Assembly (NCBI GenBank): GCA_964587515.1
Contig: CAZPMO010000002.1
Span: 28,151 to 68,117, forward strand
Source: an uncultured Rhodospirillaceae bacterium
Lineage (GTDB): Bacteria; Pseudomonadota; Alphaproteobacteria; MPNO01
DNA: 39,967 nucleotides
Reading direction: 5' to 3'
This document shows, one piece after another, positions 15,514 to 28,453 of the stretch (the stretch's first letter is position 1; each line of letters opens with the position of its first letter). Position numbers and translations under genes: made by a program. The notes under the pieces were generated by a model. That model searched no databases. It had not been told where the DNA came from and saw only the letters and a list, made by a program, of their open reading frames with translations.

Positions 15514-16371
15514 TCAGGTTTGGAATTGCGGAATGTCCGGCAGCGATCCCCACATGCATAGCGAATATTGGTCCCAGGGGAACTGTCGGGCGCGATGATC
15601 GGGGTTCTCGCTCAGCAGCTTCACCCCGAAGGAATTCTCGTAGACCATGCCGTTCGGTCCCTCGAAATAGAGGAACATCGCGGTCGACAGCGGATGGCGG
15701 CCCGGTCCGAAGACGATCTTCACCTGCCGGTCCCGCAGGAAATAATAGGACCGCATCACGTCGTCCAGACTGTCGACCTGGAAATTCACATGCTGCACGC
15801 CCGGCGTCTCGGACGGGAACAGGGCCATTCGGTGGTGGACGTCGTCAAAGGACAGCAATCCGCAGCCGGCGATCCAGTCGTTGCACTGAAAGTTGAAGCT
15901 GGTGCACCAGAAATCCTCGTCACGCGGCGGATTGGCCGAATTCAGCCCGATATGGCTGAATTCCTGGATACCCGCGTCGCGGCTCGGGAAATAGCGCACG
16001 CCGCTGTGGAACGGGCGCAGCACGATGTCGATCCCATTGCCGGACAGATCGGTGAACGAAATAAAATCCATGACGCGGCGCGAAACGGCCTCGTCCTCCG
16101 TGCCGCGATGGATCGCGAACCCCGCGGCGGCGAGGTCATTGGCGGCGGCGTCCAGCTCGGCCCGCGTCAGCACCTCGAACGCGACCGTATGATCGGTCGG
16201 ATCGCCTTGGAAATAGCAGACATTGTGGTCGCGGTCGTCGCCCCGAAGATAGGCCGATCCGTTCTCGCGCCCGACCAGTTCAAGCCCCATTGTCTCGGTG
16301 CAGAACTCGACCGCCGCATCGACGTCTTCGGTCCCGAAACGCACATAGCGGATATCGACAAGGTTTATCAT
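15514..16371 (-). CDS. Two-domain VOC extradiol dioxygenase, 2,3-dihydroxy-p-cumate/2,3-dihydroxybenzoate 3,4-dioxygenase (CmtC)-like
   Basis: FSHIGL, VHHRMAL, VQHVNFQV, FGPGRHPLS, FLYFEGPNGMVYE, CMWGS C-terminus. Subfamily assignment is from recall. Confidence 0.82.
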   Translation of the reverse strand: MINLVDIRYVRFGTEDVDAAVEFCTETMGLELVGRENGSAYLRGDDRDHNVCYFQGDPTDHTVAFEVLTRAELDAAANDLAAAGFAIHRGTEDEAVSRRVMDFISFTDLSGNGIDIVLRPFHSGVRYFPSRDAGIQEFSHIGLNSANPPRDEDFWCTSFNFQCNDWIAGCGLLSFDDVHHRMALFPSETPGVQHVNFQVDSLDDVMRSYYFLRDRQVKIVFGPGRHPLSTAMFLYFEGPNGMVYENSFGVKLLSENPDHRARQFPWDQYSLCMWGSLPDIPQFQT

Positions 16372-16510
16372 TCTTTACCTCCCGCGCGCGTTATCGACGC
16401 GCGTTATGGGTTTGCCCTATCCGAATGTATAATTCAACATCCGCGTCTTGATAAACGCAACTCTATTGGCTCAAAACGCATTTTCACGCACCAATCGGAC
16501 CCGAGGAACC

Positions 16511-17740
16511 ATGAGCGAAATACCCACCTTCGTGACCCATCTCGAATGCGGCCTGACCGGCAAACGCTACGAGGCGGATACGCTCCACGGCCTGTCCGAG
16601 GCGGGGCGACCGCTGCTGGTGCGGTATGATTTAGATGCGCTGGGCCGCGCCATCGACAAGGAGACGCTGGCCGCGCGCGAGCCGGAATTCTGGCGCTACC
16701 GCGAATTTCTGCCGATCCGCCGCGCCGAGAACGTGGTGCGCCTCGGCGAAATAATGACGCCGTTGATCCGCGCACCGGGACTGGAACGCGCGCTGGGCTC
16801 GGGCGAGGTGCTGATCAAGGACGAAGGCCGCCTGCCGACCGGCTCGTTCAAGGCGCGCGGGCTTGCGCTCGCGGTCTCCATGGCGAAGGAACTCGGCGTC
16901 ACGCGCATGGCCATGCCGACCAACGGCAATGCCGGCGCCGCGCTGGCCGCCTATTGCACGCGCGCCGGCATTAGCTGCGACGTATTCTGCCCCGACGACA
17001 CGCCCGAAATTAACATCGCCGAGATCGCCATCGCGGGCGCGCGCACCTGGAAGGTCAACGGGCTGATCGACGATTGCGGGCGCATCGTCGGCGAGGGCAA
17101 GGAGATCGTCGGCTGGTTCGACACCTCGACCCTGAAGGAGCCCTACCGCATCGAAGGCAAGAAGACCATGGGGCTGGAGCTCGCCGAACAGCTCGGCTGG
17201 GACGTGCCCGACGTGATCCTCTATCCCACCGGCGGCGGCACCGGGCTGATCGGCATGTGGAAGGCGTTCGCCGAGCTTGCCGCGATCGGCTGGCTCGGCG
17301 ACAAGCGCCCGCGCATGGTGGCGGTGCAGGCCGCCGGCTGCGCGCCCATCGTGAAAGCCTACGAGGACGGCGTCGAACACGCCGATCGTTGGGAAAACGC
17401 CCATACGGTGGCCGCCGGCATTCGCGTGCCGGCCGCGGTCGGCGATTTTCTGATTCTGCGCGGCGTGCGCGAGTCCGGCGGCTTCGCCACCGCCGTCGAG
17501 GACGACGCCATCGAGGCCGCGCGCGACCGGGTGGCGCGGTCGGATGGCATTCTGCTGTGTCCCGAGGGCGCGGCCACCGTCGCGGCGCTGGAGAAGGAAC
17601 TCGCCAGCGGGCGTATTTCCAAGGACGAACGCGTGGTGCTGTTCAACTGCGCCACCGGTCTCAAATATCCGCTCGCCGCCGACGTCGGCCGCATCGACCT
17701 CGGCCAGCCCATCGACTATGCCGCAATGGCGGCGCGATAG
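16511..17740 (+). CDS. thrC: Threonine synthase family PLP enzyme
   Basis: KDEGRLPTGSFKARG (PLP Lys), PTNGNAG, EPYRIEGKKTMG, PTGGGTG, CPEGAA, TGLKY. GAGG before ATG 16511. Confidence 0.85.
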   Translation: MSEIPTFVTHLECGLTGKRYEADTLHGLSEAGRPLLVRYDLDALGRAIDKETLAAREPEFWRYREFLPIRRAENVVRLGEIMTPLIRAPGLERALGSGEVLIKDEGRLPTGSFKARGLALAVSMAKELGVTRMAMPTNGNAGAALAAYCTRAGISCDVFCPDDTPEINIAEIAIAGARTWKVNGLIDDCGRIVGEGKEIVGWFDTSTLKEPYRIEGKKTMGLELAEQLGWDVPDVILYPTGGGTGLIGMWKAFAELAAIGWLGDKRPRMVAVQAAGCAPIVKAYEDGVEHADRWENAHTVAAGIRVPAAVGDFLILRGVRESGGFATAVEDDAIEAARDRVARSDGILLCPEGAATVAALEKELASGRISKDERVVLFNCATGLKYPLAADVGRIDLGQPIDYAAMAAR

Positions 17741-17801
17741 GTTCGCTTGCCCCGGGGGGTCGGGCGACACAATTGAACGGGGAACCAAGCGAAAGGAAAC
17801 G

Positions 17802-18359
17802 ATGATGTCTACTCTGCCGCCGGCCGCGCTCAGCCATTGCGTCATGTATGTGTACGATTTCGAGATGATGAAGGATTTCTATACCAACGTGATGGGCTTC
17901 CATCTGTCCGATATCGGCAGCGCGCGGGGCAACGACATCTGTTTCATGACGCTCGATCCGGAACTCGACCATCACCAACTCGCGCTGGCCGGCGGGCGCA
18001 AGGGCGACCGCGACGCGGGCAGCCTCAACCATCTCGCCTTCCGCCTGAAGTCCCTGCCCGATTTGCGCACCCGCTACGACGCGCTGATGGCGGCCGACAA
18101 TGTCAGCGACATCGATCCCATCACCCACGGATCGTGGCTTTCGGTCTATTACCGCGACCCGGAGAACAACCGCATGGAGTTCTTCGTCGACACCCCGTGG
18201 TACATGAAGCAGCCGATCGTCGAACCCCTCGACATGTCGTTGTCCGACGACGAGATGATGCGCCTGACCGAGCAGACCTATCGCGACTGGCCGGACTTCC
18301 GCCCCATGGAGGAATGGAAGGCCGAGACCCGCAAGAAACTAACGAGCGAGCACGCCTAA
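17802..18359 (+). CDS. Single-domain VOC/glyoxalase family protein
   Basis: LSHCVMYV, FYTNVMG, HHQLAL, LNHLAF, THGSWLSVYYRDPENNRMEF. AAGGA before ATG. Confidence 0.9.
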   Translation: MMSTLPPAALSHCVMYVYDFEMMKDFYTNVMGFHLSDIGSARGNDICFMTLDPELDHHQLALAGGRKGDRDAGSLNHLAFRLKSLPDLRTRYDALMAADNVSDIDPITHGSWLSVYYRDPENNRMEFFVDTPWYMKQPIVEPLDMSLSDDEMMRLTEQTYRDWPDFRPMEEWKAETRKKLTSEHA

Positions 18360-19057
18360 CCTGCTTCGGCCAGCGCGGTCCAGGCCCAGCCGATTTCGCG
18401 CATGGCGCGGCGCGCCTCGAACACGGTGTAGGGCTCGGCGGTCAGGAAATACTTGTCGATCAGATGCCGCACCCATTCCTGGGTCTCGGCGGCGCGCGCG
18501 GGTTCGCCCCTGAGAAAGACCAGCGCGTCCTCGGCGACCCCGTAATGGCCGGCGAGGCTGTCGGCCAGCGCGCCCATCAACCCCGGCATCTGACGTTCCA
18601 GCACCCAGGCCACGCCGGCCGCCTCGGCGGCGCTCGATTGTTCGCCGTGCAGCCGCACCATGTCGATCAGATCCTCCGCCTCGGCCGAGGGGTTCTCGAG
18701 CGCCTCGGTCAGCGCCGATGGAGACATGCCCAGCGCTTCCGTCATGAGCCGCCAGCCCTTATCGGCGTCGGAATCCGCCTCGTGGGTCGCGCGGTAGAGA
18801 CGATCGAACAGACGCGTGCCGTCGTCGCGGTCGATCACCGCGATTTTCGCGATGAAGGCGTAACGGCCGCGCCCGGCGACCACCGGCGTGAGACGGGTCA
18901 GCAGCGCCTGGAGATCGGAAACCGGCAGCGCGCCCGCCAGCGCGTCGCGCCATACGGGGTGATCGGCGAGGCGGAGATGCGGCGCGTTCTCGTCTTCGGC
19001 CAGCAACGCCGCCGCCTCGCCGCTTTCGACGATGCGCTCGACCTCGACGATTTTCAT
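18356..19057 (-). CDS. Degenerate heme-oxygenase-like (TenA/PqqC/CADD fold) protein lacking most diiron ligands
   Basis: Aligns by eye with 20150..20890 (ERQMP/EAQLP, HYGVAEDALVFL/FYGLDDDTIEYF, LIDKY/LLDKY, ARRA..WAW). ATGA overlap with the upstream ORF fixes the start at 19057. Confidence 0.78.
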   Translation of the reverse strand: MKIVEVERIVESGEAAALLAEDENAPHLRLADHPVWRDALAGALPVSDLQALLTRLTPVVAGRGRYAFIAKIAVIDRDDGTRLFDRLYRATHEADSDADKGWRLMTEALGMSPSALTEALENPSAEAEDLIDMVRLHGEQSSAAEAAGVAWVLERQMPGLMGALADSLAGHYGVAEDALVFLRGEPARAAETQEWVRHLIDKYFLTAEPYTVFEARRAMREIGWAWTALAEAG

Positions 19058-19311
19058 GACGAACCCTCCCCGGCCAGCCGTTCCGCGACGCCTTCGTCCT
19101 CCAGCGAGGTGTAGGGGCTTTTCTTCACCGACCAGAACTCGATCGCGCCGTCGAAGAAGCCGGTATAGCAAACCACATCGCGTTCCTCGAGTTCGAGCCG
19201 CGCCACCACCTGGTCCGGCACCTCGACGACCAGCTTGCCGTCGCCATCCTTGCGGACCAGCACCGGGGCCGACCATTCGATGCCCTCTTGGGAATTCTCG
19301 CTGGCTGTCAT
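19054..19311 (-). CDS. 85-aa acidic protein, AbrB/MazE/SpoVT swapped-hairpin-like
   Basis: GGAGAAGGA RBS before ATG 19311. VRKDGDGKLVVEVPDQVVARLELEERDVV resembles the GxxxIP...LxLxxGD pattern. Confidence 0.65.
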   Translation of the reverse strand: MTASENSQEGIEWSAPVLVRKDGDGKLVVEVPDQVVARLELEERDVVCYTGFFDGAIEFWSVKKSPYTSLEDEGVAERLAGEGSS

Positions 19312-19322
19312 TATCCTTCTCC

Positions 19323-20150
19323 CTAATTCAGATCTCGGCTGAAATCGGCGATTAGCGCCGCCGTGCGTTGGGGTTGCGTCTCCGGGACATAGTGATCGCT
19401 GTCCTCGACGATCACGGACGGCAGGTCGGGCCGCAACGCGCATGACCGCGCGAACGCCGCCGCCGTCACGAAACGGCTGACCGCGCCCCGCACCAGCAAT
19501 GTCGGCATGGAAAGCGCACCCACCACGTCTTCCAGATTCTCGCGCAAGCCCCTTGAAGTCGATCGCATCGCGTCGCCGTCGGCGAGCGGGCGCAGCGCGC
19601 CGTCCCGGTCGCGCCCGAAGCCCCATTGCGCGCGGCGCGACACCGCGTCGGCCGGCATCATTGGATAGCGGTCGTGCAGATAGGCCTCCATTTCTTCGCT
19701 GGAGGCGAAGGCGCGGTCGCCGCCGCCGACGCGGGCGTCCAGCGCATCGAAGATTTCGGTCTCGACGAAGGGCGTGAACTCGATGGCGATCACGGCGGAG
19801 ATTTTATCGGGATAGACCGCGCCGGCGACGATGGCGTTGCGCGCGCCCAGCGAATGGCCCACCAGCAAAGCAGGTCCAGCGTCGAGATCGTCCACCAGGG
19901 CGGCCACGTCGGCGGCGAAATCGGCGCCGCGGTAACAATCGCCGGCCGGCTTGGCGCTGCGCCCGTGGCCGCGCTGATCGATGGCGACGCAATGGAACCG
20001 GTCCGACAGCGCGGCCGTCACCGGGTCCCAGCCGCGCCCGTTGGCGGTGATGCCGTGCAGGAAGATGGCGGGGGAGCCCGCACCGGTCTCGAAGGCGCAA
20101 ATCTCGACCGTCGAGAGCGCGCGGCGGCGCTCGATGATGGCGCCGGACAT
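19323..20150 (-). CDS. Alpha/beta hydrolase, 2-(acetamidomethylene)succinate hydrolase-like
   Basis: HGITAN, DQRGHG, GHSLGARN, FTPFVETE, YLxxRYP, GALRPLA, RGLR, LRPDLP, DHYVPE. These match my recollection of the Mesorhizobium loti vitamin B6 pathway enzyme along its length. Confidence 0.85.
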   Translation of the reverse strand: MSGAIIERRRALSTVEICAFETGAGSPAIFLHGITANGRGWDPVTAALSDRFHCVAIDQRGHGRSAKPAGDCYRGADFAADVAALVDDLDAGPALLVGHSLGARNAIVAGAVYPDKISAVIAIEFTPFVETEIFDALDARVGGGDRAFASSEEMEAYLHDRYPMMPADAVSRRAQWGFGRDRDGALRPLADGDAMRSTSRGLRENLEDVVGALSMPTLLVRGAVSRFVTAAAFARSCALRPDLPSVIVEDSDHYVPETQPQRTAALIADFSRDLN

Positions 20151-20890
20151 CAGAAATCGTATTTGCGGCGCAGGATCCTCAATATGCCTTCATGCATTTC
20201 GCGCCACGCCCACAGGGTTACGGCCGAGGCGCGCCGCGCACGCGCTATTTCCAGGTCCGACAAAACATATTTGTCGAGCAGGCCCGAAGATGCGTCCGTG
20301 TGCTCGATATCGGCGCGCACATGTTCGAGGAAATATTCGATGGTGTCATCGTCGAGCCCGTAGAATTTCCGCAGCGCCAACGCCGTCGCGCCGTGGGATT
20401 CCGGCAGCTGCGCCTCGTCGGCGTACCAGGTCGCGAGCCCTTCGGACGCGTTGCGGCGGCAGAAATAGGTCAGAGTGCGCGAAAACCCGATGACCTCGGC
20501 GATGGGGAAGCGCGCCGCCTCGTCGAGTTCCTCCTCGGTCGCGCCCAAATTCTTCGCGAAACGCACCCACAGGCCGGGATGCTCGCCCTCATCCTCGGGC
20601 CGCATGATCTCGTCATAGGTGTTTTCCAGCAGATGCTGCACGTCATCGCCCTTGAGGAAAGCGGCGTGGCTCAGCATCATCTTGGGCTCGGCGTGCGCCT
20701 GGAAGGACCAGCGCATCAGCGCGAAATCCTTCAGCGCCTCCTTGGGCAGCCGCCCCGACGTGATCAGGGTCACGAGCGGCGTGCGCAGATAGCGGTGCTC
20801 GGGCCGGGTGATGTCCTCGTGGATATAATCCCGGATAGCCTTCGGCGCCGATGGCGCATCGGCTCTGGCAAGGGTCGCGGTGGCGGTCAT
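20150..20890 (-). CDS. Heme-oxygenase-like diiron protein (CADD/PqqC/TenA-like) with intact ligand set
   Basis: ENTYDE...GEHPGLW, YADEAQLP, YFLEHVRADIEH (HxxxDxxH). GGGGAG RBS. TGATG coupling to the hydrolase. Confidence 0.88.
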   Translation of the reverse strand: MTATATLARADAPSAPKAIRDYIHEDITRPEHRYLRTPLVTLITSGRLPKEALKDFALMRWSFQAHAEPKMMLSHAAFLKGDDVQHLLENTYDEIMRPEDEGEHPGLWVRFAKNLGATEEELDEAARFPIAEVIGFSRTLTYFCRRNASEGLATWYADEAQLPESHGATALALRKFYGLDDDTIEYFLEHVRADIEHTDASSGLLDKYVLSDLEIARARRASAVTLWAWREMHEGILRILRRKYDF

Positions 20891-20958
20891 CGCTCGGTCT
20901 CCCCAGTTGTTCTTGGAATGATTATGGGATTCATCCCGGGCCGCGTCACGCCAAATCC

Positions 20959-21492
20959 TCAGACCGCGGGTTCGAGATCGACCTCAAGCGCCTGCAACAG
21001 GCGCGAATGCGCGATATAAGCGGCGATCATCACGCCAAGCTCGACGATCCCGCGGTCGTCGAAATGATCGCGCAGCGGATCGAACGCCGCGTCCGGCACT
21101 TCGGGGGACACCGTCATGGCGTCGACAAAAGCCAGTGCGGCGCGCTCGCGCGCATCAAAAAAATCCGACGGGCTCCAATCTTCCAGCGCGTCGCATTCGG
21201 CGCGGCTTACCCCCTCGGCCTCGGCAAGTCTGGGCACGTGCTGACGCAAAACATATGCCGAGCCCACCAGATGCCCCATGCGGATGATCACCAGCTCGCG
21301 CAGCCTTCCGTCGAGGCCGGTGCCCCAGCGCACCTGGTTAATGTGATCGAACCAGCTTTCGGCCAGCGGCGGCGAATGCAGCAGCGTCCGATAGACATTG
21401 ATCACATTGCCGCGCCGTTTGCCACGAATGCGCCCGGCAAGCTCGGCAAGCTCGGGACGGTCGTCCGGATCGATCAAAGGTACGCGCGCCAT
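20959..21492 (-). CDS. Carboxymuconolactone decarboxylase/AhpD-like protein
   Basis: NVYRTLLHSP, LDGRLRELVI, YVLRQH, ERAALAFVDAMT, IVEL. No CxxC. AAGGAGG RBS. Confidence 0.88.
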   Translation of the reverse strand: MARVPLIDPDDRPELAELAGRIRGKRRGNVINVYRTLLHSPPLAESWFDHINQVRWGTGLDGRLRELVIIRMGHLVGSAYVLRQHVPRLAEAEGVSRAECDALEDWSPSDFFDARERAALAFVDAMTVSPEVPDAAFDPLRDHFDDRGIVELGVMIAAYIAHSRLLQALEVDLEPAV

Positions 21493-26981: not shown

Positions 26982-27674
26982 TCACATCAGCGCGTAGCCT
27001 TTTTCGTAGTGCAGGTAGATGCCGTCGAAATAGAACCAGCGGAGCGCGGCGCCCTCGCGGGCGTAGTGGATGCACATGTCCTGGCTTTCGCGGTCGGTGC
27101 AGTGGCGTTCCAGCACCTCGAAGGCGCGGTCGCCGTGCTCCACATCGACCTCGGCGTGGAGCCAGAAATGTTCGATCTCGTCATCCGGGAAATTGTAAGT
27201 CTCGCGCAGCGCCGGCAGCACCTTGGAATAGAGCCGGGGCGACTGGGTTTCGCTGGCGATGTTGCTGCACGCCACGCCGCAATACCAGGGTTGCTCCGTC
27301 GCCACCTGAACCTGCCAGTTGGCCCACAGCCGCGTGGTCGGCAGGCCGCGTCCGGCCTTGACCTTCGCCGGGTCGGCGCCGTTGGCGGCGGCGAATTTCA
27401 GGACGATTTCCATGTGCGGATTATCGGGGTCTTCCTCCTCGTTGAAATTCGCCAGCATGGCGTCAACCACGTCCGGCGGCGCCTTGGCGCAGATGTTGAA
27501 CACCGAGCGCTGGAGCAGCGTGGTGATCCAGTGCCAGTGCTCGACGCCCCAGCCCATCATGGCGTTGCGGCCAAGCTCGCCCTTTGCCCAGGCCTCGGTC
27601 ATCGGATGATCGGCGCAGTGACGCTCGTTCACCGCGTCCTCGAGCGCGCGTCGGAAGTTGCTCTTGCCGGCCAT
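26982..27674 (-). CDS. Heme-oxygenase-like diiron protein (PqqC/CADD/TenA-like), intact ligands
   Basis: DHPM..AWAKGEL, NFNEEEDPDNPH, SETQSP, FWLHAEVDVEH, RWFYFDGIY. AAGGAGG RBS before ATG 27674. Confidence 0.9.
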   Translation of the reverse strand: MAGKSNFRRALEDAVNERHCADHPMTEAWAKGELGRNAMMGWGVEHWHWITTLLQRSVFNICAKAPPDVVDAMLANFNEEEDPDNPHMEIVLKFAAANGADPAKVKAGRGLPTTRLWANWQVQVATEQPWYCGVACSNIASETQSPRLYSKVLPALRETYNFPDDEIEHFWLHAEVDVEHGDRAFEVLERHCTDRESQDMCIHYAREGAALRWFYFDGIYLHYEKGYALM

Positions 27675-27688
27675 GGATTCGCCTCCTT

Positions 27689-28453
27689 TTATGTGGTCGC
27701 GCTTCCGGGCCCTGGCTCGACCAGGGCGCGGAAGGCGATCGAGAGCGTCGTCACCGCGAGCGCGATGCCCAGCAGCGCGACGGTCTGTTGCAGTAACGCG
27801 TGGATGAAACTCGCCGTCAGCGCGCCGCCGCCGATGGCCCGCATCAACAGGCCGAACGCGACCTGGACGGGCGCCAGCGGCAACCCGACGATGACGGAGA
27901 TTGCCAGCAACCGCCAGCCATTGCCGGCGGTGCGTTCCCAGCAATCGCGCACCGTGAGCGCATGGTTGATGGCGGCGGCCGGGAACAGCAGCGACAGGCG
28001 GACGAACAGCAGCATGCCGCCGATGACCGCGATCACGATCACCGCGAACGACACAGCCGACTGCACATTGTTGGACGCACCGCTGGCCAGCAGGATAGGC
28101 GCGATGCTGCCCGCCGCGACCACGACCATGATGGTCGCGTAAAGCGCCAGCGTGACCAGCAGGAACCGGGTGTGGCGGCGGCGCCAGCTCAGCGCGGCGG
28201 CCACGGTATGAACTTCGCCCGGCAACAGAAATCGCCGGTGCCAGGCGACCGAGAACACCACCCAGACAATCGCCGCGACAATGGAAATGACGAGATCGAG
28301 CCCGCGCCCGCCGCGCGCGAACGACTGTATGGCGACGGTGACGATCGCGAGCGCGAGGATGGCGGGGAAGGCCAGCGCCAGAAAATCCCGCCGCGCCCGC
28401 CAGACGAAGCGATAGGCCGCGCCGGCGGTTGCGAAAATGGCGAGGCGCGGCAC
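27689..28453 (-). CDS. Hypothetical integral membrane protein
   Basis: About six TM segments, VAWHRRFL, RLSLLFPAAA, WERTAGNGWRL. Confidence 0.75.
   Translation of the reverse strand: MPRLAIFATAGAAYRFVWRARRDFLALAFPAILALAIVTVAIQSFARGGRGLDLVISIVAAIVWVVFSVAWHRRFLLPGEVHTVAAALSWRRRHTRFLLVTLALYATIMVVVAAGSIAPILLASGASNNVQSAVSFAVIVIAVIGGMLLFVRLSLLFPAAAINHALTVRDCWERTAGNGWRLLAISVIVGLPLAPVQVAFGLLMRAIGGGALTASFIHALLQQTVALLGIALAVTTLSIAFRALVEPGPGSATT

Follow-up and report, generated by a model that had tools for sequence, protein, structure and literature searches.

An intact, ligand-less paralog encoded with a heme-oxygenase-like diiron enzyme and its possible role as an oxygenase subunit

Why would a bacterium keep, close to a diiron enzyme, a full-length copy of it that has lost nearly all of the metal ligands? 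This question is raised by a stretch of 39,967 nucleotides (hereafter the window; contig CAZPMO010000002.1, positions 28,151 to 68,117) of an uncultured Rhodospirillaceae bacterium, the source genome being a marine metagenome-assembled genome, 95.4% complete and in 292 contigs. Four genes follow one another on the minus strand of the window. The first encodes a CADD-like heme-oxygenase-like diiron enzyme (HDO) with the full 3-His/3-carboxylate ligand set (HDO246; 20150..20890, PF14518 E 9.4e-17), the second an alpha/beta hydrolase (19323..20150), the third an 85-residue protein resembling SpoVT, AbrB and MazE (small85; 19054..19311), and the last a 233-residue paralog of HDO246 that has a heme-oxygenase-like fold but is ligand-less (HDOlike233; 18356..19057). 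A first-pass annotation of this DNA had read HDOlike233 as an intact structural or regulatory subunit. Absent from that annotation were small85, with which HDOlike233 is translationally coupled, the identity of the hydrolase and the setting in vitamin B6 catabolism. That the gene is not decaying was borne out, and the subunit role is plausible and the one that we prefer. More specifically, we regard it as an evenly balanced proposition that HDO246, small85 and HDOlike233 (the trio) form a three-component, flavin-independent oxygenase that opens hydroxypyridine rings, with HDOlike233 as its non-catalytic subunit, by analogy with PaaA/PaaC/PaaB. At the level of the genes the findings are solid; the mechanism is put forward as a well-framed hypothesis.

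An intact paralog that has lost five of six metal ligands

HDOlike233 translates without a stop over all 233 codons, as first annotated. It shared 24% identity with HDO246 by BLASTP (52/217, E 4e-8), and alignment of profiles built from the two ortholog sets (hhalign) gave a probability of 99.5% and an E-value of 2e-22 over 222 columns. All of the motif pairs that the annotation had listed as common to both proteins were present in the BLASTP and the profile alignments. The similarity stands far above chance. Within the genome of the window, which holds 11 PF14518 matches in all, the HDOlike233 profile found HDO246 at E 1.4e-25, with the next-best PF14518 relative at 2e-4. The HDO246 profile in turn found HDOlike233 as its best non-self match, narrowly (9.8e-12 vs 2.7e-11 for the next relative). 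The two are therefore reciprocal closest paralogs within that genome. In a quick tree each family formed one group (support 99 for HDO246 and 92 for HDOlike233), and the two groups came together to the exclusion of seven further paralogs from that genome, though weakly supported (75) and with warnings of long branches.

The AlphaFold2 model of HDOlike233, made with 23 orthologs, was all-helical and confident (mean pLDDT 86.9, pTM 0.85) and displayed the seven-helix heme-oxygenase-like fold. Foldseek returned PqqC, CADD, TenA homologs and UndA as top matches, in agreement with the fold expected from the annotation. By VIA-align the closest structure was CADD (1rcw; Z 23.0, rmsd 2.3 Å over 209 residues), followed by FlcD (Z 20), PqqC (18.7), a TenA homolog (18.6) and UndA (18.2). 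The family profile also matched 1rcw at E 4.7e-5 over residues 27-216. The protein of the window matched no Pfam family at E <= 0.1 and did not reach the PF14518 gathering score; some orthologs carry a precomputed PF14518 match, as do 32-55% of members among its atlas neighbours. Its score against TIGR04305, the CADD family, was 23.4 bits for a cut-off of 200, which places it outside that family. In one source, orthologs bear the label 'PQQ biosynthesis protein C'. Like PqqC and TenA, HDOlike233 has this fold without a dimetal site, but neither the window nor the scanned flanks contain pqq or thiamin salvage genes. TenA has a catalytic Cys, and HDOlike233 falls outside the TenA/thiaminase II group, with neither a PF03070 match nor a conserved Cys column.

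To follow the metal ligands from one protein to the other, we used the hhalign mapping. E94 of HDO246 corresponds to A90 of HDOlike233, H104 falls in a two-residue deletion, E159 corresponds to E154, H190 to E185, D194 to A189 and H197 to T192. Of the 3-His/3-(or 4-)carboxylate set that defines a dimetal site, HDOlike233 thus keeps the equivalent of E159 alone, just as the annotation had claimed for the central Glu. Judging from its sequence, HDOlike233 is an HDO homolog but not a dimetal HDO. The loss is uniform. Among sequences collected from all loci at a coverage of at least 85% (96 HDO and 52 paralog sequences), each of the six ligands was kept in 96/96 HDO246 orthologs, and five of the six positions were lost in 52/52 HDOlike233 orthologs, so that no ortholog retaining the ligands turned up. 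No sequence had an acidic residue at position 90 (A 36, S 10, V 3, R 1, T 1, G 1) and none had His at position 185 (E 31, R 13, Q 4, Y 3, L 1); position 189 was A in 48, G in 3 and L in 1, and His was likewise missing from position 192. Position 154 was E in 39 sequences and D in 13. Residues 185 and 188 swap charge among orthologs (31 with E185/R188, 12 with R185/E188), a pattern that fits a salt bridge, not a metal ligand.

Could HDOlike233 have rebuilt a metal site from other residues, for instance D97, D99, E/D154 and H137, and have stayed a redox enzyme? The raw material would be there, as the conserved carboxylates D97/D99 and E/D154 stand on former ligand positions or next to them and H137 is present in 50/52 sequences. 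Against this, the three former His positions held no His in 52/52 sequences, and E185 is replaced by Arg in 13/52 with a compensating swap at 188. Furthermore, the equivalents of D97 and D99 in the true HDO (E101 and E/D103 of HDO246) are also conserved, outside the six ligands. Rebuilding of the site by alternative residues is unlikely from these alignments, and a redox-active HDOlike233 is a very improbable reading.

Comparison with the CADD-type HDOs (Chlamydia CT610/CADD; 8va9, 9pj4) led to a further distinction. HDO246 is their closer relative, its best solved match being the 4-aminobenzoate (pABA) synthase 9pj4 (E 1.8e-15), and HDOlike233 shares the fold of CADD but not five of its six ligands. 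W36 and D97 of HDOlike233 align with CADD Tyr27 and His88, which we take to be active-site residues. Where CADD has Tyr27 and Lys152, presumably the sacrificial Tyr and the donor Lys, HDOlike233 has Trp36 and Leu164, and HDO246 has Val and Thr. Since both CADD residues are missing from both proteins, neither should be a self-sacrificing pABA synthase.

The HDOlike233 family is small and tight. A word-indexed search found 58 relatives at E <= 0.001, including some shorter partial matches; full-length relatives were 49-99% identical and mostly 233 residues long. Most ortholog clusters are of 233 residues with the N-terminus MKIVE. An exhaustive search found only 45 representative clusters among 1.84 billion. 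The orthologs come from Alpha- and Betaproteobacteria, Gemmatimonadota and Actinomycetota, and the reading frame was intact in all complete ones. Several Actinomycetota loci displayed apparent frameshifts (split or shifted tblastn matches), and three incomplete rows (L007, L018, L019) were excluded from the first ortholog alignment.

Is the gene nevertheless a decaying duplicate, open by chance? HDOlike233 does evolve faster than the HDO (mean pairwise p-distance 0.456 vs 0.276, about 1.65x), and it sits on a long stem branch in the quick tree. However, dN/dS measured on close Actinomycetota pairs (dS 0.13-0.42; 0.16-0.41 for HDOlike233; distant pairs are saturated in dS) was well below 1, at 0.22-0.43 for HDOlike233, compared with 0.04-0.15 for HDO246, 0.12-0.35 for small85 and 0.32-0.46 for the hydrolase. 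In addition, 53 columns were at least 90% conserved among the 52 sequences. HDOlike233 is under purifying selection. Together with the intact orthologs in four bacterial groups, the uniform ligand loss and the conserved gene order, these values refute decay and agree with the dN/dS below 1 anticipated in the annotation.

A conserved unit of three genes

The four genes of the window are tightly packed. The start of the hydrolase gene overlaps the HDO246 stop by 1 nt, the hydrolase gene ends 11 nt before small85, which is preceded by a GGAGAAGG ribosome site, and the small85 stop overlaps the HDOlike233 start by 4 nt (ATGA, 19054..19057). The ATGA overlap that had been annotated therefore exists, but its partner is small85, and neither the hydrolase nor the HDO. 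The same 4-nt overlap recurs in most genome loci. A sigma-70-like promoter match lies directly upstream of HDO246 (20921..20949, minus strand; 9/12 consensus positions); two such sites were found for 0.5 expected from shuffled sequence, which is weak evidence. No RNA dataset was listed for the operon, the datasets listed being of DNA, from marine and seawater metagenomes.

To determine how general this arrangement is, we collected loci with two different seeds. Searching with HDOlike233 gave 19 genome loci, 18 of which contained the whole cassette; in L002 the gene order was present with a partial hydrolase match. When 400 other genomes of the same class were searched with the hydrolase at E <= 1e-40, a single one matched (G367), and it carried the whole cassette. 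Searching with HDO246 gave 80 metagenome loci, 54 of them with small85 downstream. The hydrolase gene lay between HDO246 and small85 in 45/54 and was missing in 9/54. HDOlike233 directly followed small85 in all 46 loci that reach at least 150 nt beyond small85, weak partial matches having been checked. Fifteen of the 80 loci end within or after the hydrolase gene, and 11 show neither hydrolase nor small85, 8 of these having less than 400 nt downstream. The nine loci without hydrolase identify the core: the conserved unit is the trio of diiron HDO, small85 and ligand-less paralog, and the linkage of these genes is obligate.

Pairwise distances of the three trio proteins correlate across 52 loci (r ~0.9), as expected of linked genes, and are not independent evidence of binding. 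No fused forms of the trio were found in a search for longer proteins (weak evidence). Three proteins of 322-420 residues (P0069, P0070 and P0073) were considered as fusions and rejected; they are mosaics of hydrolase, small85, paralog and aldolase-fold pieces and look like frameshift read-throughs. A plasmid collection gave no match for the hydrolase or HDOlike233.

The third member, small85, was identified through its orthologs. Seven of 17 matched PF04014 (MazE/SpoVT-AbrB; best E 5.9e-6). The copy in the window matched no Pfam family at E <= 0.1 and no NCBIfam model at E <= 0.01, and with the E limit raised to 10 it hit PF15937 alone (E 0.13). Its AlphaFold2 model (pLDDT 76.8, pTM 0.49) consists of four strands and one short helix, and Foldseek ranked MazE, SpoVT and AbrB best with weak E-values of 0.03-0.5; no PDB sequence matched below E 0.2. 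The genome of the window has no second copy. The folded, conserved SpoVT/AbrB-like core led us to reject a role as precursor of a RiPP, a ribosomally made peptide modified after translation.

Such a fold evokes regulation, and small85 and HDOlike233 could be a ligand-sensing pair in which the paralog binds a pyridine and its AbrB-fold partner binds operon DNA. SpoVT/AbrB/MazE domains are classic DNA binders and antitoxins, several TenA-family structures were deposited as 'transcriptional regulator', and the two genes overlap. We consider this reading highly doubtful. AbrB uses arginines in its N-terminal hairpin region, but the sole invariant basic residue of small85, K64, lies outside that region. 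Moreover, the isoelectric point of small85 is 4.05-4.7 in 12/17 orthologs (one has 5.67 and four have 9.7-10.5), many of the clusters already have IclR-type regulators on their flanks, and the gene pair lies within the operon, downstream of the enzyme genes. The combination of a catalytic diiron protein, a metal-stripped paralog and a small protein of dimer-forming fold, strictly co-inherited and translationally coupled, favours instead a non-catalytic subunit, and HDOlike233 is indeed a paralog of the predicted catalytic subunit without its metal site.

A possible ring-opening oxygenase in vitamin B6 catabolism

A pointer to the substrate comes from the hydrolase (Abhydrolase_1, E 5e-23), whose match to one solved structure far exceeded all others (PDB 3kxp, E 4.3e-73; next match 1.7e-15) and which is a homolog of (E)-2-(acetamidomethylene)succinate (E-2AMS) hydrolase. 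In PMC3538738, that enzyme is described as catalyzing the final step in degradation pathway I of vitamin B6 and as acting on the E isomer only. Each of the 10 Actinomycetota loci (L009-L018) has homologs of B6 catabolic enzymes on the flanks of the cassette, namely 4-pyridoxolactonase (PDB 3aj3, E 7.8e-91), FHMPC 5-dehydrogenase (4om8, E 2.2e-100), pyridoxal 4-dehydrogenase (3ndr, E 1.3e-90) and a class II aldolase-fold protein related to Mlr6791 (2z7b, E 7.9e-15). These 10 loci thus contain a cluster of pathway I type. Betaproteobacterial and Gemmatimonadota loci likewise have homologs of the aldolase-fold protein and FHMPC dehydrogenase on their flanks, and these two were found in 28/80 and 20/80 metagenome loci respectively, many contigs being short. 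A class V aminotransferase and an IclR regulator were present in L013, the sole locus scanned for the former.

Two other neighbours of the clusters were observed. A GFO/IDH/MocA oxidoreductase gene lies upstream in L011. A gene of PF06684 ('Amino acid synthesis', function unknown) adjoins the cassette or the B6 cluster in 8 genome loci (L003, L005, L009, L011, L012, L014, L015, L018; e.g. L011:8315-8899), and the genome of the window has a 55%-identical copy on another contig.

Which step could the trio perform? From the pathway as we take it to run, two steps have no candidate gene in the clusters, 4-pyridoxate dehydrogenase and 2-methyl-3-hydroxypyridine-5-carboxylate (MHPC) oxygenase. MHPC oxygenase is flavin-dependent. 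No PF01494 flavin monooxygenase was found among 75 flank open reading frames (ORFs) of 9 loci (E <= 1e-6) or among 97 flank ORFs of 18 loci (E <= 1e-8), and the scanned flanks of L009-L018 contained neither a flavin monooxygenase match nor an evident 4-pyridoxate dehydrogenase candidate. The trio is flanked by homologs of the steps before and after MHPC oxygenase. It also occurs without upstream-step genes in the genome of the window and in L001, L002, L004 and L008, and it is likewise alone in G367, which was queried only with the neighbour genes of the window. From its position at the MHPC oxygenase gap and its occurrence without upstream-step genes, we infer that the trio acts at the ring-opening step. 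HDOlike233 as the missing 4-pyridoxate dehydrogenase was considered and rejected, because in some genomes and loci the trio stands alone, with no homolog of FHMPC dehydrogenase or of the decarboxylase.

We propose the following scheme. An HDO gene would have been duplicated, and one copy would have lost five of its six metal ligands to become HDOlike233. HDO246, encoded three genes upstream, would be the catalytic subunit and HDOlike233 an iron-free, beta-like member, kept since HDO246 depends on it, for example to be stable, to have its substrate site shaped or gated, or to dock a reductase. Small85, which has a dimer-forming fold, may act as the bridge between HDO246 and HDOlike233. The trio would then open the 3-hydroxypyridine ring of MHPC to give E-2AMS, which the co-encoded hydrolase would cleave, and would so stand in for the flavoprotein MHPC oxygenase. 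Compared with that enzyme of pathway I in Mesorhizobium loti, the trio is unrelated in family and cofactor; it is proposed for the same step, after the decarboxylase and FHMPC dehydrogenase and before E-2AMS hydrolase, a role read from genes. Taken in full, this scheme describes a first multi-component HDO, with a diiron alpha, a ligand-less beta and a dimeric gamma subunit of SpoVT/AbrB fold, that replaces MHPC oxygenase in B6 catabolism; we hold it at somewhat less than even. That such replacement extends over Actinomycetota, Proteobacteria and Gemmatimonadota from soil and sea follows from the same reading and is put forward just as tentatively.

The nearest precedent is the PaaA/PaaC/PaaB core of phenylacetyl-CoA epoxidase. 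According to PMC4498308, PaaA is catalytic and insoluble alone, PaaC is structural and of the same fold with 17% identity (compared with 24% for HDO246/HDOlike233), and a PaaB dimer bridges two PaaA/PaaC heterodimers. The trio would likewise combine a catalytic diiron subunit, a metal-less paralog and a small bridging dimer, as do the alpha and beta subunits of bacterial multicomponent monooxygenases for the first two parts. The folds differ: Paa proteins are ferritin-like four-helix bundles whereas the trio is heme-oxygenase-like, so that any resemblance would be convergent. The Paa association is demonstrated, whereas that of the trio is deduced from its genes, and no PaaE-like reductase is encoded near the trio.

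Several observations weigh against the proposed oxygenase. Association of the trio is suggested by gene linkage, a single line of evidence, and even this linkage has gaps, as no recognisable hydrolase or small85 was found in the 512-821 nt downstream of the HDO in L037, L055 and L094, and no other cassette genes in the 6 kb upstream of the HDOlike233 fragment of L019. Monooxygenase-type turnover needs electrons, and no recurrent reductase or ferredoxin gene was found beside the trio in the scanned flanks. The aldolase-fold neighbour resembles Mlr6791 weakly, as its fourth match. Five carrier genomes each have 11-31 PF01494 matches elsewhere, none of them next to the cassette to the extent that contig coordinates show, so that an MHPC oxygenase ortholog may be among them. 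The genome of the window has no lactonase homolog at E <= 1e-10 and its best FHMPC dehydrogenase match is 33% identical; for these two enzymes it does not share the pathway I pattern, and the substrate there may therefore not be a B6 catabolite. Finally, the dN/dS of HDOlike233 resembles that of the hydrolase, a true enzyme, and residues equivalent to those of the cavity are kept (W36 50/52, D97 48/52, E/D154 52/52), along with D79, D99, R135 and Y203 in 52/52, K71, R216 and R217 in 51/52, and H137 and Y172 in 50/52. A retained pocket would equally explain the conserved cavity-equivalent residues.

These last points bear on a different explanation, that HDOlike233 is itself a metal-free enzyme performing a separate step beside the HDO, as PqqC and TenA do in this fold. 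It might carry out water-dependent ring opening of an HDO-hydroxylated intermediate, or supply the E isomer required by the hydrolase. The best structural matches include metal-independent members of the fold, polar residues are conserved, with W36 and D97 at the positions of CADD Tyr27 and His88, and the similar dN/dS of the hydrolase points the same way, as does the restriction of E-2AMS hydrolase to the E isomer (PMC3538738). Ring opening consists of an oxygenation and a water-dependent cleavage and could be divided between two proteins. The label pseudoenzyme, used in the annotation, is accordingly not established, as W36, D97 and E/D154 leave room for metal-free activity. Nevertheless, many of the conserved residues are common to HDO246 (D79/D83, Y172/Y177, Y203/Y208, RR, WAW) and may be structural. 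No second catalyst is required, since the flavoprotein MHPC oxygenase carries out both half-reactions. Conserved translational coupling to a small non-enzymatic protein also fits a complex better. We consider a metal-free enzyme the main rival, though less likely, and retain the non-catalytic subunit as the preferred reading, with a physical association of the trio, its pyridine substrate and replacement of the flavoprotein as further proposed parts of it.

If true, this reading would reveal the first protein-partner dependence in the HDO superfamily and a design like that of PaaA/PaaC/PaaB, reached again by convergence. A small unannotated family of 45 clusters would also gain a function, and vitamin B6 breakdown would seem to have a way of opening the ring without flavin. 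A 2026 review (PMC13108848) states that, in contrast to ferritin-like diiron oxygenases, the HDOs so far studied require no protein effector, and the sole partner mentioned there is the redox partner MboB for MboA. In the literature outside subscription journals and supplements, we found no heterodimeric or multi-subunit HDO, and no HDO, PqqC-like or 'iron-containing redox enzyme' protein linked to MHPC oxygenase or B6 degradation.

Individual loci and other genes of the window

Nine loci contain the trio without hydrolase (L044, L048, L049, L032, L034, L045, L053, L092, L101), and from these the trio may serve further substrates. The three that were scanned (L044, L048 and L049) adjoin EamA transporter genes; a luciferase-like monooxygenase gene is present in L048 and L049, and an isocitrate/isopropylmalate dehydrogenase-like gene in L044 and L048. 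In L019, a Stellaceae contig, the match consists of the last 69 residues of an HDOlike233 homolog at 54% identity, which may be a remnant. In G367, a flavin-reductase-like gene (PF01613; L030:12083-12757, minus strand) lies ~650 nt downstream of the cassette; it might supply electrons, but was unseen in the other scanned loci.

Further genes of the window were also examined. A second PF14518 (Haem_oxygenas_2) gene at 26982..27944 on the minus strand is the best PF14518 match in the genome (E 9e-22); with the profiles built, no small85-like or ligand-less partner was detectable for the other PF14518 genes of that genome. A carboxymuconolactone-decarboxylase/AhpD-like gene (20959..21492, minus strand) lies 68 nt upstream of HDO246 on the same strand, and is not conserved beside the cassette in the compared genome or metagenome loci. 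On the plus strand, 16448..17740 encodes a threonine-synthase-type pyridoxal-phosphate enzyme (NF006050, E 6e-193). It lies between two genes of the VOC/extradiol-dioxygenase fold (15514..16371 and 17796..18359) and a gene of the FAA-hydrolase family, an odd setting for a biosynthetic threonine synthase.

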